Assembly (NCBI GenBank): GCA_963807605.1 | Contig: CAWECG010000003.1 | Location: forward strand, 512,001 to 576,000 | Direction: 5' to 3' | Source of the DNA: Candidatus Bathyarchaeota archaeon | GTDB lineage: Archaea; Thermoproteota; Bathyarchaeia; 40CM-2-53-6; RBG-13-38-9 | Length of the DNA: 64,000 nt | Part shown: piece after piece, positions 16,847 through 32,977 of the stretch | How positions within the stretch are numbered: position 1 is the stretch's first letter | Layout: every line of letters starts with the position of its first letter | Translations under genes and position numbers: made by a program | Notes under the pieces: generated by a model | Seen by the model: only the letters and a program-made list of their open reading frames with translations | What the model was told of the DNA's origin: nothing | The model's database searches: none

Positions 16847-18505
16847 CTAGTCGAATTCTGAGGAGCCTTCTTCTCCACCCGGCATCTTCGGAGGCCCTGC
16901 TGGCTCTTTCGGTTTGCCTGCAGCTATTACGTCATCTATCCTCAGTATCATCGTCGCTGCTTCACTCGCGGACATGACGACTTGCCTCTTGACTGCGAGG
17001 GGTTCGTAGACGTTGATCTTTGTCATATCCTTGGCCTTGCCATCATAGACATCGACGCCTGCCCATTTCTCTCCCTTCTCATGTCTTGATCTTAGGTCGA
17101 CGAGGATGTCTATCGGGTCGAGTCCAGCGTTCTCAGCCAGTGTCATCGGTATCGTTTCTAATGCTTCTGCGTAGCATATGGCTGCGAGCTGCTCTTTTCC
17201 TGTGAGCTTCTCCGCCCACCTCTTGAGTTGGGCTGCAGCCTCTAGTTCAGGTGCGCCTCCTCCGGCGACTATCCGCGGGTCGCGAACTACATCTCTGACT
17301 ACGCAGAGGGCGTCGTGGATCGAGCGTTCAGCCTCGTTTACGATTCGTTCTGTTCCTCCTCTTACGAGAATCGATACGGCTTTGGGGTTCTTGCATCCTT
17401 CTATGAAGGTCATCTTGTCGTCCGCAATCTTTCTCTCCTCGAAGAGTTCTGCGGTGCCGAGGTTCTCAGGTTTGAGATCATCCATGTTTATGACCATCTT
17501 TGCTCCTGTTGCCTTCGCCAGCTTCTCCATGTCCTTCTCGCTGACTCTTCTTACCGCGGCTATCCCTTCTCTGGCGAGGAAGTGCTGGGCGACGTCGTCT
17601 ATTCCTTTCTGGCAGAGGAGTACGTTTGCTCCTGAGGCCTTTACCTTCTGAACCATGTCTTTGAGCATCTTCTCCTCTTCGTCCAGAAAGGCCTTCATCT
17701 GTTCTGGTCTCTGGATGTTGATCTTTGCGTCGAATTCAGTCTTCTCAACCTCTATCGCCGCGTTGAGTAATGCTATCTTGGGGTTCTTTACGCTCTTGGG
17801 CATTCCGAGGTGAATGACTTCCTTGTCGATGACTACTCCTTTGATGAGTTGAGTGTCTGTGACTGAGCCTCCAGCCTTCTTCTCGACCTTTATGTCCTCG
17901 ATGTCCACCTTCCAGCCTTGAGGGCTCTGCTCAGCGACTTGGAGGACAGCGTCTACTGCAATGTCTGCTACGAAGTCAGCGTTCTCTGAGAGGAGTTTGC
18001 TGGCTTGGGAGGTTACTGCTACATCTTTGAGGGCTTTTCGATCGTTTGGGTCGACTTTGATCGCCATCTGATCGAGGATCTGTAGGGCTTTCTCGGTTGC
18101 CTGCCTGTAACCGTCAACGATGATTGTTGGGTGAACGTCTCTGTCTATTAACTCCTCGGCCTTTGAGAGCAGCTCGGATGATAAAACGACGGCTGTTGTC
18201 GTGCCGTCCCCAACTTCCTGGTCTTGAGCCTTTGCGACTTCGACCATCATCTTTGCTGCTGGGTTCTGGACGTCCATCTCTTTGAGTATTGTCGCTCCGT
18301 CATTTGTTATTGTAACATCTCCGAAGCTTGCTATGAGCATCTTGTCCATTCCTTTGGGTCCGAGTGAGGAGCGGACGCATTCTGCAACTACTTTTGCGGC
18401 AGCGATGTTGGATCTCACCGCTTCCCTGCCGGTGCTTCTGCTTGAGCCTTCTCTAAGAATCAGAACTGGTTGACCGCCAATCTTTGCTTGTATAGCTTCA
18501 GCCAT
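16847..18505 (-). CDS. Thermosome (group II chaperonin) subunit
   Basis: [28 protein letters not shown]. Confidence 0.97.
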
Positions 18506-18518
18506 TTTTCATTACCTC

Positions 18519-20156
18519 CTAATATTCCGGCATTCCGCCTCCGGGTCCACCCCTTGGGGGTGGCATTGGGGGCGGTCTTGCCGCTGCTATTACATCATCT
18601 ACTCTCAAGATCATCGAGGCTGCCTCAACTGCTGATTTCACAGCCTGTTCCTTAACCATGACGGGTTCTATCACGCCTTCGCCGATCATGTCTTTCGTCT
18701 TTCCAGTGTAGACATCAACTCCAAATGTGTATCCCTTCGGTTCGTCGTGTGCTGCCTTGAGGGCTACCATTATGTCTATCGGGTCTAGCCCTGCGTTCTC
18801 AGCCAAGTATTTTGGTATGCACTCGATGGCGTCTGAGAATTTTACGATTGCGAGTTGTTCTCTTCCGCCAATCTTAACTGCGTATTCTCTCAGTCTCTTT
18901 GCCACCTCGATTTCGGTGGCTCCGCCTCCAGCAACTATCTTGTTCTTATTGACTACGTCGGCTATGACGTATAGCGCGTCGTTCATCGCCCGTTCAGCCT
19001 CGTCGACAGACCTCTCGAGACCTGCTCTGATGAGTATGCTGACGGAGCGTGGATTCTTACAGTCCTCTATGAAGACCATTTTGTCTTCGCCCAGTCTTCT
19101 CTCCTCGGCGAGGCCTGCGTTTCCAAGATCCTTCTCTGTGAGGCCCCCGATGTTGTTTACAGTTCTTCCTCCTGTTGCTCTTGCAAGCTTCTCCATGTCT
19201 GACTCCTTTATTCTTCTGACTGCCATGATCCCTTCTTTAGCGAGGAAGTGCTGGGCGACGTCGTCTATTCCTTTCTGGCAGAGGAGTACGTTTGCTCCTG
19301 AGGCCTTTACCTTCTGAACCATGTCTTTCAGCATAGTCGTCTCTTCGTCGAGGAATGCCTTCATCTGGTCGGGGTCACTTATTCTGATCTCGGCGCTGAA
19401 TTCAGTCTTCTCAACCTCTATCGCGGCGTTGAGTAATGCTATCTTGGGGTTCTTTACGCTCTTGGGCATTCCAGGATGGACAACTTCCTTGTCAATGATT
19501 ATGCCCCTGATGAGTTGGGTATCAAGGATGCTCTTTCCGATCTTCTTCACCAGCTGGATATTGTCGATGTCAGCCATCAGTTTGTCTCCTCGCTGTTCGA
19601 TTATTTGCTTCACGGCGTCTACGGCTATCTCGGCTAGGTGATTTCTTGCGCCTCCCACATTTTTGCTGTGTAGGGCGGTCATAGCCACCTTCCTAAGGGT
19701 TGCTTTATCGTTCAAGTCTACAGGCTGACCAATTTGGTCAAGTATCTTCATAGTTTCGTCTGCGGCCTTCTTGTAGCCTGAGACTATGGTTGTGACATGG
19801 ATGTTGTCGTCGATCAGTTCCTCTGCCCCTCTAAGGAGTTCTCCTGCGAAGACTACGGCTGTTGTTGTACCGTCGCCAACCTCGTCGTCTTGGGTTTTTG
19901 CAACCTCGACCATCATCTTTGCTGCTGGGTTCTGGACATCGATCTCATCCAGGATGGTTGCTCCGTCATTGGTCACTGTTACGTCGCCTAGGCTGTCGAC
20001 TAGCATTTTGTCCATCCCTCTTGGGCCTAGGGTGGACTTTACGACTTCGCCGATTATCTTTGCAGCTGTTATATTCGATCTCTGGGCTTCTCTGCCTCGA
20101 CTTCTTGAGGCTCCCTCCTTCAGTATTAGAACTGGTTGACCTGTCAAATACGCCAA
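18519..20156 (-). CDS. Thermosome (group II chaperonin) subunit
   Basis: [15 protein letters not shown]-terminal PPP/GGM tail. Confidence 0.97.
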
Positions 20157-20228
20157 TGCATTTCACCTTACTGAATAATCCACATTTAAGATTCTATTAT
20201 GCGAGTTTTCTATTCGATACGCCCGGTT

Positions 20229-20243
20229 GATATAAACTTTGTC
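20229..20243 (-). promoter_or_regulatory. BRE/TATA of the thermosome operon
   Basis: Minus strand GACAAAG-TTTATATC about 75 nt upstream of ATG. Confidence 0.55.
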
Positions 20244-20250
20244 GCGCGTA

Positions 20251-21329
20251 TGCTGTGTTGCGCGACTAGGTTTCAGTGATGTTTTTCGCTTTTGTTGGCT
20301 GTCTTCAGGTTTCGTCTAGCCGTGTGTTGCTGTGGTTGTTTCTATCAGCATGTTGTATAGTGAGGCTTTGATCATCATCTCCTGTGCCATGTTTTGCATC
20401 GTTTTGGCTGAGACGTATTCTCCGAAGGTTCGCTTCAGCGATGAGAAGGCTGATTCAGCCATCCATCTATACCCGTAGCCATGATTGTGTTTCCAGGCTT
20501 CAGGGTCTTTGAGGTATTCTTGGGCTACGAGCTTTCTGGGCATGCATCCTCCGGCCCTGCTGGATGTGTTCTTGCGCACCTTGATGGCTGGCTCAATCCC
20601 TTTTGCGTTGAGATAGCGGAAGTTGCTTTTCATATCGTATGCTCCGTCGCCAATTGCCTTGGCGACCTTACCTTTCTTGGAGGCTTCATCAACAAGCGGC
20701 TGGAGCATCCCTCCGTCACCTGTCTTCTCATCCGTCACCTTCAAGGCGAGTATCTTCTTCCGCTTTACATCAACGGCGATATGGATCTTGAGGTATCCGC
20801 GTCTCACCTTCCATTTATGGCGTATCCATTCGCCGCGGTTAGCCACCTTGATGCCTGATGCGTCCACCGCCAGGACTATGTCGTCGCCATAATCTTTCTC
20901 ATCCAGCTTCACATCTAACCTGTTCACGCGTCTATCTATGGTTGAATAGTCAGGCACATGGATCCTTGAGTCGAATCTTCTCAGGGCTTTGAGGAATCCT
21001 TCTGTCTGCCTGTAGGGTAGGTGGAATAGCAGGTGCATGTAGCCTAGAAGCCTGATGAAGATCTCAGGGTAGACGTATTGTCCACCTTCCTTCCCAGTAT
21101 TCATCTTTTCAAGCTCAATGTTCCACCTGTCAAGGATGCGTGGGTCAAGCAGGATCTCCCCACGCTTCACGAGACCCTCATTGATGCGTCTCCAATCTCT
21201 AGCAGCCAATCACAATCGTGGAATAGTTCTCTCACAGGCAATATAGATCATCCAACCACTTCCACGTCAATAAACCGAAAACTCAAACCTACATCCATAA
21301 ACAAAAATGTCTAGTCATGCAACACAGCA
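20251..21329 (-). mobile_element. IS5-family insertion sequence, apparently complete
   Basis: TIRs TGCTGTGTTGCGCGACTAG / CTAGTCATGCAACACAGCA; 8-bp TSD CGCGCGTA at 20243-20250 and 21330-21337. Confidence 0.93.
20316..21209 (-). CDS. IS5-family DDE transposase
   Basis: PDYSTI, AVDASG, KIHIAVD, GDGAYD, YGYRWMAESAFSSLK. Confidence 0.95.
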   Translation of the reverse strand: MAARDWRRINEGLVKRGEILLDPRILDRWNIELEKMNTGKEGGQYVYPEIFIRLLGYMHLLFHLPYRQTEGFLKALRRFDSRIHVPDYSTIDRRVNRLDVKLDEKDYGDDIVLAVDASGIKVANRGEWIRHKWKVRRGYLKIHIAVDVKRKKILALKVTDEKTGDGGMLQPLVDEASKKGKVAKAIGDGAYDMKSNFRYLNAKGIEPAIKVRKNTSSRAGGCMPRKLVAQEYLKDPEAWKHNHGYGYRWMAESAFSSLKRTFGEYVSAKTMQNMAQEMMIKASLYNMLIETTTATHG

Positions 21330-21454
21330 CGCGCGTAGGTACTGTCAAGTCTTCGTCTGATCGCTAGGGTTGTAAAAATTCGTCGGATAACTATCACGAC
21401 ATAAATGGCTTCTGAGGAATGATTACATATCTTGGTGCACATTCATTTGGATGT

Positions 21455-21844
21455 ATGATTTGGTATCCTTCCGACGATGACGTAATCTGCCTCAATTGGG
21501 TGGTTCTTGAAATGTCGCGTGACAAACACCCTCACAAACTCTTGGGGTCAAGAGAAGGAATACGAGCAATCATAGATAGCGTCAAACATCAAGAGCAAGG
21601 GGGGTTAATCTTTCAAGCCGCACTCTTGTTGAAGAACTTTGCCGAGAAACATATATTTGATGGTGCAAACCATAGAACCGCCTACGCAGTGACTAAGAGT
21701 TTCTTGACAAGGAATGGTAAACGTTTCCGAGTTAGCACTCTAAATGAGGCGTATCCATTTATTAAGAACCTTGAGGTACACGATATAGAAGAAATTCAAA
21801 GGTGGATAGAGCATGGAGAAGAAGGGTTGCCAAGAAAACCCTAA
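21455..21844 (+). CDS. Fic/Doc family protein
   Basis: HIFDGANHRTA variant Fic motif. Confidence 0.8.
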   Translation: MIWYPSDDDVICLNWVVLEMSRDKHPHKLLGSREGIRAIIDSVKHQEQGGLIFQAALLLKNFAEKHIFDGANHRTAYAVTKSFLTRNGKRFRVSTLNEAYPFIKNLEVHDIEEIQRWIEHGEEGLPRKP

Positions 21845-21926
21845 CCTAGCCTTCTTTAGGGAGATTCTTGAAGAGGACATACCTCTACTGAAGATGCTCG
21901 CCACTAATGGCAAGCATAAGGAATAG
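21813..21926 (+). CDS. 37-aa putative antitoxin/partner of the Fic/Doc protein
   Basis: MEKKGCQENPNLAFFREILEEDIPLLKMLATNGKHKE overlaps the Fic 3' end; below the ORF-track length cutoff. Confidence 0.45.
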   Translation: MEKKGCQENPNLAFFREILEEDIPLLKMLATNGKHKE

Positions 21927-21943
21927 AGGTTAGAGTGGCTGTT

Positions 21944-22492
21944 TCAAGTCATTTGACTTGCGTTTTGTATCAACGTTAGCCACTTGTTCTTTCCTTCGAC
22001 TTTGATTCCACATGCTTCTGCTGGTGTCTTACCCTCTAGGGCTTCATGTGGTCGCATGTAGTTGTGGAATATCTGGTAGCCCTTCAGAATGGGAGTATCG
22101 GTTTTCTTCAGTCCTCGCATGACCTTCTCTCTATCTCTGACTTCCCCGTTGAACCGTTCCATCTTGTTATTATTTCTATCACCCTGTATTCTGATGTGGC
22201 TGATATGCTGAGGTCTAGGTTGCTGGTGTTGCCAAAACTCCTTACGATAAGCATCATGATAAGCTGGTAGTCCATCAGTGATTAGTAGCATAGGTTTCTT
22301 GCCTGTGAGTTCCTTGCCCTTGCGGAACAAGTTTCGAGCATCATGAGTAAACTTGGTATCGGCTACTTCTTGAACTATCCAGAAACGAGTCTCATCATCC
22401 ATGAGGGCGAAAACATACTTCATGTTGCCTCTGAACTTTACGAAAAGCTCGGGAACTATCTTGCGACACTCGGCGAATTTGCTGAAGCGCAA
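21944..22492 (-). pseudogene. IS6-like DDE transposase, 5'-truncated/internally deleted
   Basis: ELFVKF..KYVFALMD..TRFW, ITDGL, NNKMERFNG, HNYMRPH..L.GKTPAE; the first catalytic D (W..DE) is missing. Confidence 0.8.
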
Positions 22493-22651
22493 GGAGAGCT
22501 ATTCGCAAAAGAGATGAACCACTACTTTGATCTGATACTCTCTTCGCTGGCCCTTGACTGACCAAACTGAGGAGAACAGCCAGCTTTTCATGCGCACACC
22601 AGATCATGGTTGGCTTGAGTGATGCAGAACGCAGAGGAGTAAAACTCTTTA

Positions 22652-23035
22652 TCAGTTCATCCTCAGATGCCTGTGAAAATCTGTTACGAAATTGTCAACC
22701 AATCTTTCAAGGCTCTGAGTAATTTCCTTGACTTTAAGACTGGCCTGTTCTTTGATCTTTGACTCTTCAGCTGCGATGTAAATGTGATAGTATCCCCCCT
22801 CTTTAAGTGTCCTTACTCTCTTGTACACGAGGCTCAAGCTGACTAGCTTTGATAACGAGCGGTGAACAGTGCTTCTGTTCCTCTTCACTGCTTCTGAAAT
22901 CTCGTCGAGGGTGACCTGATCGCCTCGTGCAACCACAAAAAGGATATCAAGATCCATCTGTTTCAGGTTGTACAGGCAGGTAAGAAGCTCCGAGCATGTC
23001 GCGCCTTTTCTCGTAAGGAATTGTATGCTTTCCAT
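22652..23035 (-). CDS. TrmB/MarR-like HTH transcriptional regulator
   Basis: LTCLYNL, TLDEISEAVKRNRSTVHRSL, GGYYHIY. Confidence 0.85.
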   Translation of the reverse strand: MESIQFLTRKGATCSELLTCLYNLKQMDLDILFVVARGDQVTLDEISEAVKRNRSTVHRSLSKLVSLSLVYKRVRTLKEGGYYHIYIAAEESKIKEQASLKVKEITQSLERLVDNFVTDFHRHLRMN

Positions 23036-23148
23036 TTGACCTTAAGATAGGGAATGAGATGGAATATAAGTATTGCATGGTATTGGCAAGACTCTGATAC
23101 ATTAATAAACCCATTTCGCACTGATGAATGAACTGGTAGATTGTAACA

Positions 23149-23628
23149 ATGAGCGTAGATACTGAGAACAATAAAGACCAGGAAATCGAGAAGATCAAAA
23201 TGAGAGCCTTGCATGAGATCCAGAAGCAAGCAAAGACCCAGCAGAGTCAGACTGAAGCCCTGAAGGCTTTGGGCGGTAAACCGATAGACCTTACGGATTC
23301 AAACTTTTTTTCTGTTGTTAACAAGTACCCACTGATGCTGATCGATTTCTGGGCGCCATGGTGTGGGCCTTGCAGAATGGTTTCCCCTACTATAGATCAA
23401 CTGGCAAAGCAGTATTCGGGCAACATTGCATTTGGAAGAGTCAATGTTGACGAAAATCCAACGACTGCAAGTCAATTTGAGGTACAGGGCATCCCCACGC
23501 TCTTGATCTTTCAGCATGGGAAAGCAATTGATAGACTCGTCGGCGCATATCCAAAGAACACCATCGAATCGCGGCTCCAGGCACATCTAGGGAATGGTTC
23601 TGCTCCATCTGCCGGCGCATATCGATAA
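23149..23628 (+). CDS. trxA: Thioredoxin
   Basis: DFWAPWCGPC, GIPT. Confidence 0.95.
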   Translation: MSVDTENNKDQEIEKIKMRALHEIQKQAKTQQSQTEALKALGGKPIDLTDSNFFSVVNKYPLMLIDFWAPWCGPCRMVSPTIDQLAKQYSGNIAFGRVNVDENPTTASQFEVQGIPTLLIFQHGKAIDRLVGAYPKNTIESRLQAHLGNGSAPSAGAYR

Positions 23629-23680
23629 TCAATCAAAATGCGTTTTGATTGAAACGTTGGGAGATGGAACTGTAAGCGAA

Positions 23681-23820
23681 ATGATTCCAGCAACAACCTC
23701 AAACGGCCAGCAAGTTCTTATTATGAAAGAGCGGTCTCAGCAGACAAAGGGAAAGAAAGCGCAGCAAAACAACATATTTGCTGGCAAACTGCTAGCCGAA
23801 CTCATCAAAACAAGCTTGGG
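23681..23820 (+). pseudogene. 5' fragment of a third thermosome gene
   Basis: GQQVLIMKERSQQTKGKKAQQNNIFAGKLLAELIKTSLG aligns with [39 protein letters not shown]; ends at ACGCGCGCGT. Confidence 0.85.
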
Positions 23821-23831
23821 ACGCGCGCGTA

Positions 23832-23945
23832 AATTATCAAGATCGAGAACGCATGAAACGGTGCCTAGGCATTTTCGAAGACTTCTGCATTGTTACCCAA
23901 AGCGTCAGGAATGGCATCAATGTCCAGGTTGCCGTCCAGTCCTGA
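23832..23945 (+). pseudogene. 3' fragment of an OsmC-family gene
   Basis: RMKRCLGIFEDFCIVTQSVRNGINVQV* begins right after ACGCGCGCGT. Confidence 0.7.
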
Positions 23946-23961
23946 GTGGAGGTGATTGCAT

Positions 23962-24138
23962 ATGGCGAAGAAGTTCAAATGCGCTGATATTGGTATGAAG
24001 TGTGGCTTCGAAGCTACGGCCAACACGACCGATGAACTAATGCCCAAAATTGCCGACCACGCTAAGGCTGCACATGGAATGACCGAGATACCCAAAGATA
24101 TACTTGCAAAGGTCCAAGCGGCGATAAAGGACATTTAG
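23962..24138 (+). CDS. DUF1059 small metal-binding protein
   Basis: FKCADIGMKCGFEA...DHAKAAHGM; GGAGGTGA SD. Confidence 0.88.
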   Translation: MAKKFKCADIGMKCGFEATANTTDELMPKIADHAKAAHGMTEIPKDILAKVQAAIKDI

Positions 24139-24150
24139 AAGTCGAAGAGA

Positions 24151-24831
24151 GTGAAGCGCACCGGAGGGACGCCGACGTCAAAGTCAAGGCGACATAGCGG
24201 CGGCTCCCTCAAGCTCCCTATTCCATTCTACCATCAAGCTTCGCAATTCACCTGCGGACCCGCTTGCTTGATGATGGCGATGAAGTTCTTCAAACCATCT
24301 CTGCATCTGAATCGAAAATTTGAGTTTGACATTTGGCGTGAAGCCAACCTGGTGGAGTGCTACGGAACAAGCAAAGAAGGGTTGGCGCTAGCAGCGGCTA
24401 GGCGAGGTTTTGACGTTTACATGCTCGGAAGAGCACTGCGGCATTCCTTCGTAGACGCCATCGATACCAAAATACCTAACATTGACTACCAAATGCTCGA
24501 GTTGCTTTACAATGACACAAAAGCGAAATTGCGCGCCATGGGAGTCAAGAACGTTGCTCGCGAAGTCCAGTTGTCCAACCTCAAGGGTGCTTTGCGTAAC
24601 TCGCAAGTTCCAATTCTGCTCACAAGCACATCATTGTTCGGGAAAAAAGAAGCCCTTCCACACTGGGTGGTCCTCACGGGGTACGGAAAAGACTGGTATC
24701 TAAATAATCCATTAGCAAACTCGCCAAATACGAGACTTAGCGGCCGGACTTTAGAGAACAATTTGGGGTACAAGGAAATTCGCTGCGCCGTCATTGTCCA
24801 AGGCTTAAAGCGGCGAGTTGAACCCAAGTGA
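24151..24831 (+). CDS. Peptidase C39-like protein (DUF3335-like)
   Basis: YHQASQFTCGPACLMMA, IWREAN, PHWVVLTG. Confidence 0.8.
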   Translation: MKRTGGTPTSKSRRHSGGSLKLPIPFYHQASQFTCGPACLMMAMKFFKPSLHLNRKFEFDIWREANLVECYGTSKEGLALAAARRGFDVYMLGRALRHSFVDAIDTKIPNIDYQMLELLYNDTKAKLRAMGVKNVAREVQLSNLKGALRNSQVPILLTSTSLFGKKEALPHWVVLTGYGKDWYLNNPLANSPNTRLSGRTLENNLGYKEIRCAVIVQGLKRRVEPK

Positions 24832-24912
24832 ATTGTAGGTAAAGTTTGGATACATGGTTGTCGCTAAGCGATTCTCAAGGTCTAAAGTGAGTACCCTATA
24901 GGAGATGAGAAG

Positions 24913-25704
24913 ATGCCTGATATCTTTGAGGAGATTGTGCGGATAAGGCGAGAAAGAACTAGGGCTGCGCTTGCAACGGTCGTCGGCGGCGAAAAGGGAG
25001 TTCCAGGGAAAACGGGGTTCCGAATGCTAGTCTACTCGGATGGCAGCAGCCTGGGCACAATTGGAGGTGGCCTACTTGAAGCCAAAGTCCGAGAGGAAGC
25101 TCTACACTGCCTCGATGACAGGAAAACAAAGCTTCTGGAATATACCCTTGATGAGCAGAGTGCTGACGGGATTGGTGCATTATGCGGCGGCAAGGTCCAA
25201 ATTTTCGTGGAGCCGATCGAGGGGTCACCGAAGTTGTATGTCTTCGGAGGTGGTCACATCGCAGTTCCACTAGTCCAGTTTGCGAACACCCTGGGATTTT
25301 CTGTTATCGTGGTGGATGACCGAGAAGAATTCGCTAACAAAACACGCTTCCCGCAAACCGAAGTGAAGTTAGGCAACTTCGTCGATGTAACCAAGTCCTT
25401 CGACTTTCGTGAAGACGACTCTGTTGTTATAGTGACACGTGGGCATGAGCATGATGAGGTTGTGTTAAAGGAGTGCCTCTCCAAAGACAGGCTTCCAAAC
25501 TATATCGGCATGATCGGGAGCCGAGACAAGGTTGCTGCAACTTTCTCTCATCTCAAGGAACAAGGCGTATCAGAAAAACTGCTTGCGAAAGTTAAGGCTC
25601 CCATAGGAATAAACATAGGAGCTCGGACGCAGGCGGAAATCGCGTTGAGTATAATGGCTCAGATCGTTGCCCTTCTACATGAAGAGTCAACTAAATTACC
25701 CTGA
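24913..25704 (+). CDS. xdhC: XdhC/CoxI family Moco maturation factor
   Basis: GTIGGG, CGG, FGGGHI, TRGHEHD, YIGMIGS, APIG..EIA.SI. Confidence 0.9.
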   Translation: MPDIFEEIVRIRRERTRAALATVVGGEKGVPGKTGFRMLVYSDGSSLGTIGGGLLEAKVREEALHCLDDRKTKLLEYTLDEQSADGIGALCGGKVQIFVEPIEGSPKLYVFGGGHIAVPLVQFANTLGFSVIVVDDREEFANKTRFPQTEVKLGNFVDVTKSFDFREDDSVVIVTRGHEHDEVVLKECLSKDRLPNYIGMIGSRDKVAATFSHLKEQGVSEKLLAKVKAPIGINIGARTQAEIALSIMAQIVALLHEESTKLP

Positions 25705-25720
25705 GCTTCAGCTCAGGGTA
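25697..25720. other. Perfect 10-bp hairpin at the edge of the long inverted repeat
   Basis: TACCCTGAGC-TTCA-GCTCAGGGTA. Confidence 0.8.
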
Positions 25721-25950
25721 TTTCAGCTCCTTTTCTTATAACTGCTTCAAGCATTCTCTCTATGTTGTAGTATCCCTGCGGTGTGCACACACAATAATTT
25801 CTCTGTAGGAAGTGGAAAACCTCTAAGACCTCTCTTTAATTAGGCAGATACATTTGCCATCTGAGGACGTGCTTAGAATGTAACAATTTTCTCGCAATCC
25901 CTTATCATCTCATACAAATCTTTCATCGTTGACAGTGGACACATTTCAGA
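25721..25950 (-). repeat. ~230-bp inverted repeat, left arm (partner 32618..32845)
   Basis: Reverse complement matches TCTGAAATGT...AGAAAAGGAGCT with scattered substitutions. Confidence 0.92.
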
Positions 25951-26193
25951 GCCTGAAGATTGTCGGATCTTGAGACAGCTGCCACATGCAAATATTTTGC
26001 CAGCGTTATCAACAAAGGAACGCATCTGCTCCGTTATTTTGAATTTATCAGTATCAAGATATTCGCACTCTACTCCTTTTGCTATAAGAAACACCTTTAC
26101 TTCATCACGTTCTTTCAGAGCAAAATTTCCAAACCGAAAAGCATTCCACACGGTTTCTGGGTCGTTCGAGTAGATAACAATGCCAATTTTCAT
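25873..26193 (-). CDS. DsrE family protein
   Basis: NDPETVWNAFRF, VFLIAKGVE, ACGSCLKIR, CPLSTM. Confidence 0.88.
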   Translation of the reverse strand: MKIGIVIYSNDPETVWNAFRFGNFALKERDEVKVFLIAKGVECEYLDTDKFKITEQMRSFVDNAGKIFACGSCLKIRQSSGSEMCPLSTMKDLYEMIRDCEKIVTF

Positions 26194-26268
26194 ATTTGTA
26201 ACTCCTTAATTTTTTGTCATGATCACAAACAGGAGTCTTAGTCTTGCTGTCAACACTGGCTTCTAAGA

Positions 26269-27421
26269 CTAGGCCTCAAGCTTTTGTCTAATTCTGCCCA
26301 CGTTCTTGGAGACCAAGTCTACGGTATAGTCAACCTCCTCTTTGCTAGTCCATCTTCCCAGGCTGAATCTGACAGCGCCCAACGCAGTCTCTCTGGATAA
26401 TCCCATTGCTGTTAGTACTGGGGATGGCTCCATGGAGTCTGAGTGGCAGGCTGAACCTGTGGACGCCGCAATCTCTGGAATGCTCCTCAGAAGCTCTTCT
26501 CCGACTAGGCCTTTGAAGCTTAGATTCAGGGTATTCGGGAGCCTCTCCTCTGGGTGTCCATTCAATACCACGGAATCCCCACCCAGCTTGTCCAAGATGC
26601 CTTGGTAAAGCCCTTCTCTGAGAATCCTTGATTCTAGGTTTGAAGTCTGGGAGGTCTCTCTTCGCTATCTCGCAGGCCTTGCCCAACCCTACAATGTAGG
26701 GGACGTTCTCAGTGCCTGCACGTCTGCCCCGCTCCTGGCCTCCTCCATGGATCAGACTGTCCAGCTGTGTTCCGTTTCGAATGTAAAGCGCTCCTATGCC
26801 TTTTGGAGCATACAACTTGTGACCTGCTATGGTAAGGAGATCCACCTCAAGACTGTCTACATCCACGTCAGTCTTACCACAGGACTGGGCTGCATCAGTA
26901 TGGAATAGGATTCCTCTTTCGTTCAGAATCTTGCTGATCTCTTCGATGGGCTGAATCGTTCCAGTCTCATTGTTGGCATGCATAATCGTGACGAGGACAG
27001 TCTCGTCTGTGATGGCTTTCTCCAAGTCTTCTGTGCTTATGATCCCAAACTTGTCGACTGGAAGATATGTGACTCTGTATCCCAGTCTCTCCCTAAGATA
27101 ATTGCATGTTTTCAATACTGCTGGATGTTCTGTCTGAGATGTGACTATGTGCCCCTTCCTTCCGTGTGCAGTTGCAGTCCCTGTGATGGCTTGGTTGTTG
27201 CTTTCTGATCCGCTGCTGGTGAAGACGATCTCATCAGGTTCGCAGCCTATCAGTGCAGCGGTCTTCTCGCGGGCTGCGACTACTGCTTCATGGGCTCGCT
27301 GGCCGTAAACATGGTTGCTTGAAGGGTTACCGAACTCGTCCTTTAGATATGGAAGCATGGCCTCCAGGACTTGTGGGTCTGTGGGTGTAGTGGCGTTGTA
27401 GTCCATGTAGACTGGCTTCAA
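26269..27421 (-). pseudogene. iscS: Cysteine desulfurase (IscS/NifS) with a single frameshift near 26630
   Basis: YMDYNATTP, HTDAAQ, AGHKLY in 26345..27421; catalytic STGSACH in the other-frame ORF 26269..26595. Confidence 0.88.
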
Positions 27422-27426
27422 TCTCT

Positions 27427-27795
27427 CTACTTCCTCTGAAGTATGCTCTTGACGAGCCTCTCTTCGCTGGTGAGATGCTCGAAAAGCGTCTCTCTAATCA
27501 TCTCGCATGCCTGAGTGATCTTCGGATTCGATATTCTGTAGTAAATGCTGGTTCCCTCTCTTCTAGTTAGGACAATGTTCTTGTCTCTCAAGACGGCCAA
27601 GTGCTGTGAGACGTTAGCCTGAGGTAGCCTGAGCATCTGGGCAAGTTCGTTAACTGATTTTTCGCCGCTTCTGAGAAGGTAGAGTATCTTCAACCTGACA
27701 GGGTTCGCAAGGGTCTGGCACATGGCTGCATGTAACTCAAAGACCCTATCCTCTGATGAACTTAGATGAGGCATTCTTGTTTCCTTCCTCTCCAC
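27427..27795 (-). CDS. ArsR/SmtB transcriptional regulator
   Basis: LANPVRLKIL, SVNEL, NVSQHLAVL. Confidence 0.9.
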   Translation of the reverse strand: MERKETRMPHLSSSEDRVFELHAAMCQTLANPVRLKILYLLRSGEKSVNELAQMLRLPQANVSQHLAVLRDKNIVLTRREGTSIYYRISNPKITQACEMIRETLFEHLTSEERLVKSILQRK

Positions 27796-27865
27796 ATATG
27801 ACTAGCACATGATATAAAACAATATTCTTATATATTAATATGATTATAACTAACAACAATATAAA

Positions 27866-28273
27866 ATGGAGACTAAGCATGTGAGTGAAAGAAACGGTGG
27901 GTGGATAGCCCTCCTAGTAATACTCTTGATATTTCTGTTCGCAGGCCCCATGATGTTCATGGGAGGAGGTTTTATGGGCCCAGGCATGATGGGTGGCTAC
28001 GGCCCGAACGGTGGGTACCGTGGCATGATGGGCTACGGAGGATATGGCTATGGTTACGGCTTCAACTGGCTCGGCGCAATAGTCCGGATAATCGTATTCC
28101 TGATCTTTCTTGGCCTGATAGCGTTTGGAGTCTACTACCTTGTCGGTGGAGGCAGACCAACACCCACGAGTCCAACACCAAGCAGCAGACCACTTGAGAT
28201 CCTAAAGGAACGATATGCCAAGGGCGAGATAACGAAGGAAGAGTATGAGCAGATGAAGCAGGAACTCTCCTAG
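27866..28273 (+). CDS. Gly/Met-rich membrane protein with SHOCT domain
   Basis: GMMG tracts, two TMs, LEILKERYAKGEITKEEY. Confidence 0.85.
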   Translation: METKHVSERNGGWIALLVILLIFLFAGPMMFMGGGFMGPGMMGGYGPNGGYRGMMGYGGYGYGYGFNWLGAIVRIIVFLIFLGLIAFGVYYLVGGGRPTPTSPTPSSRPLEILKERYAKGEITKEEYEQMKQELS

Positions 28274-29198: not shown

Positions 29199-29422
29199 GC
29201 GCGCGAACGTAATTTGAATCAAAATCTTGTCATCGTGTTAGTTCTATTGATTGTAGTCAGTGGAGCCTTAGCAATACTCGGCTACTATGGTGTTAGAACC
29301 CCCTAAGACAGAAGACCTAACACCTTCTCCAACCATAAGCCCCGACACCCAGTAATAAGGCCAAGAATCGGCAAAGCGAAATCTAGCGCGCTATTCTTTT
29401 TCTTTGCGTAATGCCTATATAA

Positions 29423-29456
29423 TATAGCCGACGTGCTATATAGCATGCCAGCTATA
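29423..29456. promoter_or_regulatory. Two overlapping palindromes TATAGC-N6-GCTATA, likely ArsR auto-operator
   Basis: 29423-29440 and 29439-29456, overlapping ATG 29445. Confidence 0.6.
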
Positions 29457-29783
29457 GATGAGATTAGTATAATTAATTTCAAGTCAACTGTATTCGAGGC
29501 ATTGGGCGATCCAAGTAGATTGAAAATACTGGACTTTTTGAGAGATGGCGAAAAATGTGCCTGCGATGTCGTTCCAACTGTTGGTTTCGCTCAACCAACT
29601 GTTTCCAGGCATTTGAAGGTTCTCATCGATTGCGGCATCCTCAAAAGGCGCAAGGAAGGAAACAAAATGCTCTACTCAGTCACATCTCCAAAAATCTATG
29701 ACGTAATAGACTTGGTAGATTCACGCTTTATCGATTCCCTCAGTAGAAACGTCATCGCCAGAATACGACAGGGGTGTCGATAG
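29445..29783 (+). CDS. ArsR/SmtB regulator with CxC metal-sensing motif
   Basis: ALGDPSRLKIL, EKCACD, VSRHLK. Confidence 0.9.
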   Translation: MPAIDEISIINFKSTVFEALGDPSRLKILDFLRDGEKCACDVVPTVGFAQPTVSRHLKVLIDCGILKRRKEGNKMLYSVTSPKIYDVIDLVDSRFIDSLSRNVIARIRQGCR

Positions 29784-29787
29784 AGAA

Positions 29788-30189
29788 ATGGACAGTGACA
29801 GAATGGAGAGTAAGAACGATGGCTCAGGCGATAAGAAGGTTGGCTTCATATTCTGTGTCTGCACAGGCAAATGTCCAGGATTCAAAGACATGGACATGTG
29901 GGATTTCATAAACACAATTAGAGCAACCTATCCGGTTGAGTATGCATTCATTCATCCCATGCTTTGCGACGAGGATGGAGACCGATTCTTTCAGGACTTC
30001 TTACGAAAAGATAGGAGGTACTTCATAGCGGGATGTGCCCCCATAATGCAGAAGAAACTCTTTCGAGACGCGTTCGCAAGGGCTGGACTCGACATAAACC
30101 AAGACCTTGTCTCACTCGATGTTAGAAACATGACCACACAAAAAGCGCTTGAAACCGTGAAGAAAACTCTGGAAGAGGCGGCAGCTTGA
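29788..30189 (+). CDS. Stand-alone HdrA N-terminal-like Cys-rich domain protein
   Basis: KVGFIFCVC..., HPMLC, IAGCAP, FRDAF.RAGL, LDVRN resemble the HdrA N-terminal domain. Confidence 0.6.
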   Translation: MDSDRMESKNDGSGDKKVGFIFCVCTGKCPGFKDMDMWDFINTIRATYPVEYAFIHPMLCDEDGDRFFQDFLRKDRRYFIAGCAPIMQKKLFRDAFARAGLDINQDLVSLDVRNMTTQKALETVKKTLEEAAA

Positions 30190-30470
30190 CCGAAGAAACA
30201 TACATGGGGGTACCACGAAATAAGATTCCATGGTGCCCGGCCATTAACAGCGAGAAATGTAATCTTTGTGACGGAGATCCACAGTGTCTCAAGTTCTGCC
30301 CGCATGGAGTGTTCGAATACGACAAAGAAAACAAGAAATTAACTGTCAAGAACCCGAATAATTGTGTCGTATTCTGCAGGGTCTGCTCCAAAGTGTGCTC
30401 TGCAGATGCATTGAGTTTCCCAAACAAAAAGGAAATCTTGGAGTTAATAAAAAACGTCAGAGCAAACTAA
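30186..30470 (+). CDS. 4Fe-4S dicluster ferredoxin
   Basis: CNLC....CLKFCP and CVVFCRVCSKVC. Confidence 0.88.
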   Translation: MTEETYMGVPRNKIPWCPAINSEKCNLCDGDPQCLKFCPHGVFEYDKENKKLTVKNPNNCVVFCRVCSKVCSADALSFPNKKEILELIKNVRAN

Positions 30471-30852
30471 GCATATCATAATCCCATGCAGTGGCATAGG
30501 AAAGGCCCTGGGCACGATTGCGCGTAGAGCCACATACATGGTAACGGATCAGATGTTGCCAGCACAGACAGAAACTACATGTCTCCCATTATTGACAATC
30601 GAAGACAAAGAAGCAGTGGAGAAAGTAAGAGGAAACCCGTGCATAACGATAGACGGTTGTATAGCTCAATGCGCAAAGAAGAACGTGGAGTATCACAAAG
30701 GAAATCTGAAAACAGCCATAAACGTACTCGACGTTTTGAAGCAAAATCCAGGGTTGAAACCTGGTACAGTCCTTGACATCGGTCCAGACGGGGAAAAGCT
30801 CGCCAGCAGAATCTCGGAAAAAATAGTAAAAATCATCGGTGAGACAAGTTGA
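30454..30852 (+). CDS. DGC-domain putative zinc-binding protein 1 (probable ACG start)
   Basis: Frame open upstream of ATG 30538: SEQTKHIIIPCSGIGKALGTIARRA; TIDGCIAQC. Confidence 0.75.
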   Translation, partial: TSEQTKHIIIPCSGIGKALGTIARRATYMVTDQMLPAQTETTCLPLLTIEDKEAVEKVRGNPCITIDGCIAQCAKKNVEYHKGNLKTAINVLDVLKQNPGLKPGTVLDIGPDGEKLASRISEKIVKIIGETS

Positions 30853-31259
30853 AAATCAATTCAAGGAAGATCGGGCTGATCTCCTGCAGCGGCGAAGACC
30901 TGCCCGAAGGTACGATCTCAAGAGTTGCCACAAGAAGGATTCTCGAACGGCGAGACGACACAGTAACAATATGTCTACCACTGTTTTTGGCAGGAGGGCA
31001 GGGAGAAAGGGATTTCGCCAAAGAAAATCCCTGTATAACCGTCGACGGATGCAAGAAGATGTGTGCCGCCGTAGGCGTAAAGAAGTATGGTGGAGTGACT
31101 CCGTGCTCTACGATAGTGATTTCGGATGTGGTGGAAACCTTTGAGTGTCCGAAACCAACGTCGAAAAGCAAAATCGTATCACAGGATGAAGAACTCGTTA
31201 GAAAGACTATGAATGTTATAGATGAAAAAATCAAGATTGTAAGGGAAGGCAAGAACTGA
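30849..31259 (+). CDS. DGC-domain putative zinc-binding protein 2
   Basis: ISCSGE, TICLP, VDGCKKMC. Confidence 0.85.
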   Translation: MKINSRKIGLISCSGEDLPEGTISRVATRRILERRDDTVTICLPLFLAGGQGERDFAKENPCITVDGCKKMCAAVGVKKYGGVTPCSTIVISDVVETFECPKPTSKSKIVSQDEELVRKTMNVIDEKIKIVREGKN

Positions 31260-31261
31260 AA

Positions 31262-31675
31262 TTGTCATCGGAAAAGAAAGTGGCAGTAGCCGTGTGCACC
31301 GGAATGGATCAGCCACTCGCGACCGTAGCCAGATACGCTGGATACCACGTCTTGGAAAAACTAAGACCCGACAAGACGGTGCTTCTTTGCACTCCAGCCC
31401 TTCTAGGAGGAGTACAGGAAGATGTGGACTTTGTCAAAAACAACCCTGTCTTGATCATAGATGGCTGCGATGAGAAATGTTGCGAAAAGATCGTCAGGAA
31501 CTCTGATGGAAGAATACGCGCCATGATAAACGTGAAAGATGTCTTGAAAGAACACGGAGAACTACAGCCTGAGTCAAGAGTCAAACTTGGACCAATGGGA
31601 ATGGAACTTGCAGAGATAGTGGGAGACATCGCTGCAAAGAAGGTGGACCAAATACTGGAGGACGAGAAAGCTTGA
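31262..31675 (+). CDS. DGC-domain putative zinc-binding protein 3
   Basis: VCTGM, LLCTP, IDGCDEKC. Confidence 0.85.
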   Translation: MSSEKKVAVAVCTGMDQPLATVARYAGYHVLEKLRPDKTVLLCTPALLGGVQEDVDFVKNNPVLIIDGCDEKCCEKIVRNSDGRIRAMINVKDVLKEHGELQPESRVKLGPMGMELAEIVGDIAAKKVDQILEDEKA

Positions 31676-32067
31676 ACGAGAAGAAAGTTGCCATAGTTGC
31701 CTGTACTGGAATGGGGAAAGCCCTCGGAACGGTAGCCCGACAGGTTGCATACAAGGTTTCAGATGAACTACAACCGGAAAAAACGGTTTTAATATGCATT
31801 CCATCGATGGCTGCCAACGTGGGAGAATACAGGAATCAAGTGAAGAATTACCCATCAATCATCCTAGATGGCTGTGTGGAAAGATGTGCTACAAAAATCA
31901 TATCTAACAATAATGGCATGATCAAAGGAAGATTTTTCCTCCCACAACTTGTGAAGAAATACGGGTTAAAACCAGGACCCAGAACAAACATTGGACCCGA
32001 AGGAGACGAACTAGTAACCAAGATCGCTGAAGAAGTTGCAGCGCAAATTGACAAACTTCTACTGTGA
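31672..32067 (+). CDS. DGC-domain putative zinc-binding protein 4
   Basis: ACTGMGKALGT, LICIP, LDGCVERC. Confidence 0.85.
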   Translation: MNEKKVAIVACTGMGKALGTVARQVAYKVSDELQPEKTVLICIPSMAANVGEYRNQVKNYPSIILDGCVERCATKIISNNNGMIKGRFFLPQLVKKYGLKPGPRTNIGPEGDELVTKIAEEVAAQIDKLLL

Positions 32068-32534
32068 ACCTCATGGAATACTTGGAATTTAAGCTCGACA
32101 AATGGACCTTCAAAGTTCCAACGGATCTCCTCTACAACGAGAATGATTGCTGGGCAAGGATTGATGACAACACAGCTACGATAGGCATAACAGATTTTCT
32201 CCAAAACCTCATGAGCGACATAGTCTTTGTTGAGCTACCTAAAATAGGCGAAAAGATCGAACAATTCGACGAAGCCGGATCACTAGAATCAACAAAGACC
32301 ACACTTGACATAATCTCCCCAGTATCCGGAACAGTTCAAGAGGTAAACGAGGAATTATCCAACGCTCCAGACATCGCAAATACCGATCCGTACGGTAAAG
32401 GATGGTTTCTAAAAGTTCAGCTCGCAAACTTCGAATCTGACAGAGAGAACCTGATCAATGCAGAGGCTTACCTGGAAGTCTTGAAAAAGAAGGCTGGCAA
32501 AGAGCAGCAGAAACTGAAGAAGATTCCATCTTAA
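32064..32534 (+). CDS. gcvH: Glycine cleavage H-like lipoyl carrier protein
   Basis: IGITDF, VELP, LESTK (lipoyl Lys), SPVSG, DPYGKGW. Confidence 0.88.
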   Translation: MNLMEYLEFKLDKWTFKVPTDLLYNENDCWARIDDNTATIGITDFLQNLMSDIVFVELPKIGEKIEQFDEAGSLESTKTTLDIISPVSGTVQEVNEELSNAPDIANTDPYGKGWFLKVQLANFESDRENLINAEAYLEVLKKKAGKEQQKLKKIPS

Positions 32535-32617: not shown

Positions 32618-32845
32618 TCTGAAATGTGACCACTGTCAACGATGAAAGATTTGTATGAGATGATAAGGGATTGTGAGAAAATTGTTACATTCTAAGCACG
32701 TCCTCAGATGGCGAATGTATCTGCTAAATCAAGAGAGGTCTGAGAGGTTTTCCACTTCCTGGAGAGAAATTATTGTGTGTGCACACCGCAGGGATACTAC
32801 AACATAGAGAGAATGCTTGAAGCAGTCATAAGAAAAGGAGCTAAA
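32618..32845 (+). repeat. ~230-bp inverted repeat, right arm (partner 25721..25950)
   Basis: Carries the 3' end of the DsrE gene (Cys TGT appears as TGA) and the start of a second DsrE fragment. Confidence 0.92.
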
Positions 32846-32977
32846 GTGAAGATCTGCGGCAGCTGCATAGGTGCTCGCGGCATAGAAGAACTGAAGCTGA
32901 TCGAGGGATTAGAGGCAAGCAACAGGGACGAGCTAGCCAACCGGGTGGTGGAGTCCGACAAGGTACTTACATTCTAG
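32777..32977 (+). pseudogene. 3' part of a DsrE/YchN-family gene
   Basis: TPQGYYNIERML, CGSCIGARG, SDKVLTF; N-terminus absent. Confidence 0.75.

Follow-up and report, generated by a model that had tools for sequence, protein, structure and literature searches.

A lipoyl-carrier and DGC-protein gene block headed by an ArsR-type regulator in a Bathyarchaeota genome: a candidate accessory module of arsenic-resistance islands

Known accessories of arsenic-resistance (ars) operons include the ArsD-ArsA chaperone pair, ArsC of the low-molecular-weight phosphatase (LMWP) type coupled to thioredoxin, and the thioredoxin-like and DsbD_2 genes of the ars operons of anaerobes. Lipoyl groups are a classic target of arsenite poisoning, and in the Lpd-DlaT-AhpD-AhpC system of M. 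tuberculosis a lipoyl protein serves as dithiol donor. LbpA, the lipoyl protein of the sHdr system, possesses two conserved cysteines, near the N- and C-terminus, that GcvH lacks (Cao et al. 2018, PMC6067878). The stretch analysed here (hereafter, the window) comprised 64,000 nt of Candidatus Bathyarchaeota archaeon (GCA_963807605.1, contig CAWECG010000003.1, positions 512,001-576,000, forward strand). It carries a block of eight genes, which encode an ArsR/SmtB regulator, a protein resembling the N-terminal domain of HdrA (HdrA-N-like protein), a ferredoxin, four proteins with a DGC domain (DGC1 to DGC4) and a GcvH-family lipoyl carrier.

With confidence a little above even, we read this block from sequence comparison as an As(III)-responsive operon and as the Bathyarchaeia form of an accessory module of arsenic-resistance islands, built on a lipoylated GcvH-type carrier. 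Judging by gene context, the module probably serves in the handling of arsenic and not of sulfur or glycine.

Gene content, regulator and arsenic context of the module

Profile searches were run against Pfam and NCBIfam, and the host genome was 2.65 Mb in size and 94% complete. The eight open reading frames (ORFs), all on the + strand, overlapped by 4 nt or were separated by gaps of no more than 4 nt (Table 1). A preliminary description, made from the sequence alone, had named them as a tightly coupled set of ArsR, HdrA-N-like, ferredoxin, four DGC and GcvH genes, and the ORF list and the profile matches confirmed it; its further views, that the arrangement would recur in other genomes and that the block represents an undescribed module of the lipoyl/thiol-redox type, were supported as well. 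In the full-text literature on PF08859 or DGC, on GcvH or lipoyl with ars genes, and on Hdr with arsenic, no description of the module was found; the one relevant item, a PF08859 gene noted in an ars operon of P. mercurii ND132, independently favours the arsenic reading.

A scan of one genome per species revealed 327 module loci, from Bathyarchaeia, several Asgard lineages, Nezhaarchaeota, Bacillota, Bacteroidales, Synergistia and others, with cultured carriers including Acetobacterium malicum, Terrisporobacter vanillatitrophus and Ca. Formimonas warabiya; 80 loci were kept for neighbour counts. In all 80, the HdrA-N-like gene was followed by the ferredoxin, DGC and GcvH genes as far as the contig extended, the ferredoxin gene standing after the HdrA-N-like gene in 79. 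The genes are separate in Bathyarchaeia, with the order DGC-DGC-(DGC)-DGC-GcvH (21 loci), and in Asgard archaea and bacteria a DGC::GcvH fusion of about 290 aa precedes two DGC genes (49 of the 70 complete loci). The DGC domain in this fusion belongs to class C, that of DGC4 (see below); the fusion shows that GcvH and DGC4 act together as a single unit. By gene content and order, the block in the window is the Bathyarchaeia form, with split genes and four DGC genes, of a widespread module. Further apparent fusions and extensions in relatives were LMWP ArsC fused to ArsM (410 aa; L113, 11838-13070), DGC3 fused to DGC4 (268 aa; L045, 10436-11242) and class B DGC proteins extended at the C-terminus by about 100 aa that belong to no known family (L073, 7032-7733; L083, 8235-8930).

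The regulator matched HTH_5 (E 6e-15) and NF033788 (87 bits) and carries CAC (CxC) at residues 42-44, the classical As(III) site, which precedes the DNA-recognition helix; CxC[D/E] was present in 47 of the 48 ArsR orthologues located within 1.2 kb of a module. Its true start is most likely ATG 29445, not GTG 29433. A TATATAA box (29416-29422) is located some 25 nt upstream of this ATG, a spacing that fits a leaderless archaeal mRNA, and the ATG is spanned by two overlapping inverted repeats of the form TATAGC-N6-GCTATA (29423-29440 and 29439-29456). Four orthologous loci keep the TATA box, the TATAGC half-site and the GCTATATAGC palindrome, and of the three occurrences of ATAGC-N6-GCTAT in the genome, two are at this promoter. 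The repeats are a plausible autoregulatory ArsR operator.

Acr3, LMWP-type ArsC, ArsM or ArsP was encoded in the retrieved flanks of 52 of the 80 loci, and Acr3, ArsC and ArsM were the commonest structural neighbours of the module. In G027, a Bathyarchaeota metagenome-assembled genome of another family, a gene for a genuine arsenite methyltransferase, ArsM (NF008823, 358 bits), overlaps the GcvH stop codon and is translationally coupled; in several loci, an LMWP ArsC gene directly follows the module. Varied numbers of redox and lipoylation genes were also located nearby, with DsbD_2 near 23 loci, Usp and thioredoxin-like genes as frequent neighbours, Lpd adjoining seven loci and LplA adjoining seven of the 80, the window not among them.

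Table 1. Positions of the features of the gene block within the window
Feature	Position	Strand	Evidence
Promoter and putative operator region	29416..29456	+	TATA box and two overlapping inverted repeats
ArsR/SmtB regulator	29433..29783, likely start ATG 29445	+	HTH_5, NF033788, CxC motif
Stand-alone HdrA-N-terminal-domain-like protein, 133 aa	29788..30189	+	Predicted fold, profile alignment
2x[4Fe-4S]-type ferredoxin, 94 aa	30186..30470	+	Fer4_7/Fer4_6/Fer4_10
DGC1, class A	30472..30852 (first ATG 30538)	+	PF08859, read-through translation, tree
DGC2, class B	30849..31259	+	PF08859 E 9e-15, tree, heterodimer prediction
DGC3, extra paralog	31262..31675	+	PF08859 E 5e-13, tree
DGC4, class C	31672..32067	+	PF08859 E 9e-17, tree, model pLDDT 94
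GcvH-family lipoyl carrier	32064..32534	+	PF01597, TIGR00527

The lipoyl carrier and its iron-sulfur and DGC partners

The GcvH protein matched PF01597 (E 2e-35) and TIGR00527 (132.8 bits versus a cut-off of 115.85); an alternative start, ATG 32073, would give a product of 153 aa. The lipoyl lysine, described earlier as intact, is K78 and was invariant in 50 of 50 orthologues. An N-terminal extension with an FNENDCW motif contains the single cysteine of the protein, C29, which was kept in 42 of the 50. GcvP (PF02347) and GcvT (PF01571) had no match in the window or anywhere in the 94%-complete genome, in which control profiles did match, so that the lack of these partners noted earlier for the window extends to the whole genome. 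Thus, a glycine cleavage role for the module GcvH, one of three GcvH genes in the host, was rejected, and the placement of the module outside glycine cleavage is supported. The host encodes LipA, four LplA/LipB-type proteins, whose genes lie away from the module, two E2 acyltransferases and Lpd; therefore, the carrier can be lipoylated.

The 133-aa cysteine-rich protein matched no Pfam family. Its AlphaFold model (predicted local distance difference test, pLDDT, 86) was matched by Foldseek to the HdrA N-terminal domain in the solved Hdr complexes 7bkb_A, 5odc_A and 8rvu_A (probability 1.00), the best match being 7bkb_A (E 1e-4, query-based TM-score TMq 0.72, root-mean-square deviation 2.7). 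In a profile of 20 homologues, the CxC, C and GC cysteines aligned to HdrA residues 5-93. Both results agree with the earlier remark that this stand-alone domain resembles the HdrA N-terminus. The likeness covers residues 1 to about 130 of HdrA: full-length HdrA was not matched (NF041891, 14.8 bits versus a cut-off of 1300), and its thioredoxin-reductase-like flavin adenine dinucleotide (FAD) domain and its ferredoxin domains are not in the chain. Five cysteines are invariant (C23, C25, C29, C60 and C83), 443 homologues were found at 60-95% identity, and the protein is presumed to bind a [4Fe-4S] cluster. The ferredoxin matched Fer4_7 (E 1e-5, slightly under the gathering score) as well as Fer4_6 and Fer4_10, and has eight cysteines in two cluster motifs, as expected of the dicluster type to which it had been assigned; it resembles HgcB only weakly and in generic features (26.6 bits versus a cut-off of 99), and an HgcB-like identity was rejected.

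The four DGC proteins all matched PF08859 above the Pfam cut-off (E 3e-9 to 9e-17) and were the only matches in the genome, which argues that their tandem array is not due to chance. A maximum-likelihood tree of 90 DGC domains resolved three orthologous classes. Of the two genes that follow the DGC::GcvH fusion elsewhere, the first belongs to class A, as does DGC1 (support 100/97), and the second to class B, as does DGC2; class C, with DGC4, contains the GcvH-linked or GcvH-fused DGC domains (support 100/97). DGC3 is a paralog confined to some Bathyarchaeia, falling in a clade of four sequences (99/94) that is sister to class B (98/91), whereas its best BLAST matches belong to class C, and because of this disagreement its origin is unsure. 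The four cysteine columns, which include the DGC motif, were fully or almost fully conserved across classes A, B and C.

The pattern C...C...DGC..C had been ascribed to each of the four proteins. Membership in PF08859 held for all of them, but DGC1 translated from its first ATG (30538-30852, 104 aa) lacks the first cysteine motif, which is encoded upstream. The frame is open from about 30454, where ACG (30454-30456) replaces the ATG (G027) or GTG (locus L037) of relatives. The same ACG was observed in two independent metagenome contigs, with only two changes in the upstream stretch, both synonymous. These findings indicate a trait of the lineage; an assembly error is unlikely, since two independent contigs carry the same ACG. 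The N-terminus of DGC1 is probably still made, although the ACG may leave the local copy slightly impaired.

The DGC4 model (pLDDT 94) shows a four-stranded, flavodoxin-like alpha/beta domain with the four conserved cysteines at the C-terminal ends of strands 1-3 and in the following helix. A wide search with the DGC fold returned only generic flavodoxin/Rossmann-like matches (best 3pu6_A, Z 9.2); no likeness to thioredoxin or ArsD was seen in the structure searches, which do not exclude one. The cysteines of the DGC and HdrA-N-like families lie at equivalent strand ends, but hhalign did not support homology of the two (see below).

For DGC1 with DGC2, a complex was predicted with an interaction score from aligned errors (ipSAE) of 0.78 (median of three runs) versus 0.00 for the best control; among 80 solved complexes, 58 attained this ipSAE mark, as did 2 of 110 mismatched pairs, counts that hold only roughly, as the alignments were self-made. 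Contact agreement among the runs was at least 98%, and partner pLDDT at least 85. The predicted interface is formed by the cysteine-bearing loops (residues 4-10, 35-45 and 65-68 of A; 12-18, 40-49 and 70-76 of B), with C37 of A touching C72 of B. The prediction supports in silico a heterodimer of DGC A and B with eight conserved cysteines facing each other, and with it the DGC hetero-oligomer that had been proposed at the outset.

A minimal operon and possible roles of the module

A simpler arrangement, the type II operon, has the order arsR-acr3-gcvH-DGC(A)-DGC(B)-OsmC-arsC-arsM and lacks the ferredoxin, the HdrA-N-like protein and the class C DGC of the module described above (type I). Four such operons were observed, all with co-located structural ars genes: one in a genome of the same genus (G001; L030, 3585-7654), which reads arsR-acr3-gcvH-DGC-OsmC-arsM with one DGC (A) and no arsC, and three on metagenome contigs (L131, L132, L133), which read arsR-acr3-gcvH-DGC-DGC, with OsmC and arsC next on two of them; on one contig arsM follows in line, and another has it on the opposite strand. 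Their DGC proteins are of classes A and B by best match, and metagenomes contain more than 260 members of the type II GcvH family. GcvH and DGC A/B, being common to both operon types, thus form a core, embedded in a canonical ars operon; as judged from this comparison, type I adds to it the class C DGC, the HdrA-N-like protein and the ferredoxin.

A scheme for the type I module can be proposed as follows. ArsR would occupy the TATAGC-N6-GCTATA repeats until released by arsenite. The ferredoxin and the HdrA-N-like [4Fe-4S] protein would deliver low-potential electrons via the class C DGC, bound or fused to GcvH, to the lipoyl arm and so keep this arm as a dithiol. The dihydrolipoyl arm, together with the DGC A/B heterodimer, would then serve as dithiol donor or carrier for arsenic handling: as a donor, it might supply reductant to thioredoxin-type ArsC, ArsM or OsmC, and/or, as a carrier, it might convey As(III) or trivalent methylarsenic, MAs(III), towards Acr3, ArsP or ArsM. 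We further suggest, tentatively and as a possibility rather than an expectation, that strict anaerobes employ protein-bound lipoate as cofactor in an enzyme system dedicated to arsenic, with lipoyl-GcvH and DGC A/B as its catalytic core, recharged, where these are present, via the ferredoxin, the HdrA-N-like protein and the third DGC domain. Such a system would catalyse a reaction for which we know of no anaerobic enzyme, or would provide a novel reductant pathway. If so, candidates would be the reduction of As(V) or methyl-As(V) in a lipoyl-dependent manner, the regeneration of ArsC or ArsM, and the transfer of As(III) or MAs(III).

The type II operon, in which GcvH and DGC A/B stand between acr3 and arsC/arsM without ferredoxin or HdrA-N-like protein, is also consistent with a non-redox As(III) sink or chaperone. 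The dihydrolipoyl arm and the DGC Cys3-4 sites would here bind As(III) or MAs(III) and pass it to Acr3, ArsP or ArsM, the iron-sulfur proteins being accessory or regulatory; ArsD, which hands arsenite to ArsA, provides a precedent, and vicinal dithiols bind As(III) tightly. Single DGC genes adjoin ArsR or Acr3 in relatives, and the PF08859 gene in an ars operon of P. mercurii ND132, noted in one preprint, adjoins ArsP. Nevertheless, we consider a passive sink unlikely, because the type I module strictly keeps two dedicated iron-sulfur electron carriers (79-80 of the 80 loci) and because the Lpd genes adjoining seven loci point to redox turnover of the lipoyl group.

Ohr/OsmC proteins reportedly have lipoyl-dependent activity, and OsmC lies directly after the DGC gene(s) in three of the four type II operons. 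This position, together with the frequent Usp, thioredoxin-like and DsbD_2 neighbours, would suit a general thiol/peroxide stress module that is merely co-regulated with ars and in which lipoyl-GcvH reduces OsmC/Ohr-type peroxidases. Such a role appears improbable, as OsmC is absent from the type I loci, the window included, the CxC of the regulators is of the As(III) type in all but one of the 48, and the commonest structural neighbours are arsenic genes.

Several points weigh against the proposed arsenic role. The assignment of function draws on gene context alone, and Acr3, ArsC and ArsM are not adjacent in the window, their host genes being on contig C4. The ArsR of that main ars cluster is only 38% identical to the ArsR of the window, and a search for the operator motif there found none. 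CxC-type ArsR proteins can also respond to Sb(III) or other thiophilic species. DGC1 has no canonical start codon in the window. With the DGC fold, Foldseek returned nothing at E <= 0.001 and hence no specific solved relative, homology between the DGC and HdrA-N-like families was not supported by hhalign (probability 8%), and Pfam offers Zn, as a guess, for the metal of the DGC domain. The heterodimer score may reflect a general mode of DGC-DGC dimerization rather than A/B specificity.

The local copy and comparison with known systems

The surroundings of the block had been taken to fit a sulfur function. Upstream, on the - strand, are a gene for a cysteine desulfurase (IscS/NifS-like; 26269-27421), split by a single frameshift near 26600 and hence a pseudogene or the product of an indel error, and a second ArsR-family gene (27427-27795), which lacks the CxC site, has two cysteines at positions 26 and 97, and has the sulfite/persulfide sensor BigR as its second-best NCBIfam match (64.6 bits, under the cut-off). 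This second ArsR gene heads iscS-DsrE and may thus form with them a reactive-sulfur-responsive unit separate from the module. The methyltransferases of the window are generic class I enzymes by NCBIfam, and their identification as ArsM was rejected. Further upstream, at 24151-25704, are DUF3335 (C39-like peptidase) and XdhC genes, which recur beside Acr3, ArsR or module genes on Bathyarchaeia contigs (L033, L044, L045, L133), so that the region in the window may be a remnant of a larger arsenic island.

The adjacency of iscS, DsrE and the BigR-like ArsR, a GcvH-like lipoyl carrier beside an Hdr-derived domain, and rhodanese (9 loci) and TauE (8 loci) genes near some copies would suit a sulfur relay of the sHdr-LbpA type, with the lipoyl protein carrying sulfane sulfur between cysteine-rich partners, perhaps in thioarsenate or persulfide chemistry. 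However, DsrE and the two small methyltransferases were sought beside the 80 orthologous modules and found at none of them, and iscS, itself not among the queries, was absent from the recurrent neighbour clusters. In the window, iscS is frameshifted and the downstream DsrE fragmentary. CCG-domain (HdrB-like) genes number 11 in the genome, all outside the window, and none was among the recurrent neighbours of the 80 loci; likewise, the C-terminal cysteine that marks LbpA has no column in the 50 orthologues, C29 being the only cysteine of the window GcvH. Membership in the sHdr-LbpA system was therefore rejected. A sulfur relay is very improbable, and neither it nor the suggested fit of the neighbouring genes was upheld, the conserved context consisting of arsenic genes.

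Inverted repeats of about 229 bp (25722-25950 versus 32618-32845, 94-95% complementary) bracket a 6.7-kb block that contains, besides the module, DsrE, iscS, the second ArsR gene and genes for a SHOCT protein and a 256-aa protein. The right arm duplicates the 3' end of the DsrE gene (25873-26193) together with the DNA downstream of it, and the downstream "DsrE" consists of two C-terminal fragments, one in this arm and a different one at 32777-32977. The eight module proteins share 77-87% identity with their counterparts in G027, whereas the housekeeping genes flanking the G027 copy are only 66-71% identical to the host orthologues; the eRF1 and M48 peptidase genes, which together with three others bracket the G027 copy, directly abut in the host. 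These findings indicate that the module moves laterally, and the local copy is, on this comparison, a lateral acquisition apart from the main ars cluster of the host.

The main cluster, arsR-acr3-arsC with arsM on contig C4, contains neither GcvH nor DGC. In the same region (18000-28000; L122), a 44-codon N-terminal fragment of ArsM directly follows acr3, an MtrA-like gene is located upstream of arsR, and a full arsM, encoded on the other strand, neighbours MazE-like and flavodoxin-like genes. G027 has a second whole copy of the module (L027/L056, contig C3), a decaying duplicate with multiple frameshifts in the HdrA-N-like, DGC2, DGC3 and GcvH genes.

Such decay, the ACG in place of the DGC1 start codon, the flanking repeats built from parts of the DsrE gene, the frameshifted iscS and the absence from the window of the ArsM gene that follows GcvH in G027 would also be expected if the window copy were a non-functional passenger of a rearranged island. 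This is improbable too, since all eight frames are open, all conserved cysteines and K78 are present, and DGC1 is intact in its upstream part, where it differs from the two independent contigs by no more than two changes, both synonymous. We accordingly retain, at the strength stated above, the reading of the block as an arsenite-responsive accessory module.

New here are the split, four-DGC form of Bathyarchaeia, the three DGC classes, the predicted A/B heterodimer, the type II operon, the candidate operator, and the evidence on the ACG start and on lateral transfer. If the reading is correct, a lipoyl carrier controlled by an arsenite sensor, conserved within arsenic islands of anaerobic archaea and bacteria in their hundreds, would put an old cofactor to new use and supply a part so far missing from the arsenic biochemistry of anaerobes. 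This could have consequences for the source of reducing power for ArsC and ArsM, for As(III)/MAs(III) trafficking and perhaps for methylarsenical turnover, and would give a first functional handle on the DGC family and the free-standing HdrA N-domain. The split, fused and minimal GcvH-DGC(A)-DGC(B) forms together define the core parts, and cultured carriers such as Acetobacterium malicum and Terrisporobacter vanillatitrophus make the reading testable.

The module resembles several known systems in part. As in ars operons with thiol or reductant accessories, a CxC-type ArsR heads or faces the operon, the genes in orthologous loci are interleaved with acr3, arsC, arsM and arsP, and the products are small and cysteine-rich; unlike in these operons, the module proteins fall into none of the characterised Ars families, the module using a lipoyl carrier, DGC domains and an HdrA-N-like iron-sulfur protein, and the window lacks an adjacent structural ars gene. 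With the glycine cleavage H protein, the module GcvH shares a TIGR00527 score above the cut-off and the lipoyl lysine, but it differs in the FNENDCW extension, in being fused to a DGC domain in most lineages and in residing in a genome without GcvP and GcvT. In common with the sHdr-LbpA system (PMC6067878), it is a GcvH-like single lipoyl-domain protein outside glycine cleavage, encoded next to an Hdr-derived iron-sulfur protein and, in some loci, near LplA-type ligases; in contrast, the module has only the N-terminal domain of HdrA, with neither the FAD domain nor HdrB/C, and its context is arsenic rather than sulfur oxidation, in hosts that are strict anaerobes. The lipoyl-protein thiol relays are similar in that the lipoyl domain would donate dithiol electrons to small cysteine proteins, and Lpd beside some type I loci and OsmC after the DGC gene(s) in type II recall them; however, the acceptors in the module would be DGC domains, with a link to arsenic, and the electron input appears to be a ferredoxin and an iron-sulfur protein in place of reduced nicotinamide adenine dinucleotide (NADH).

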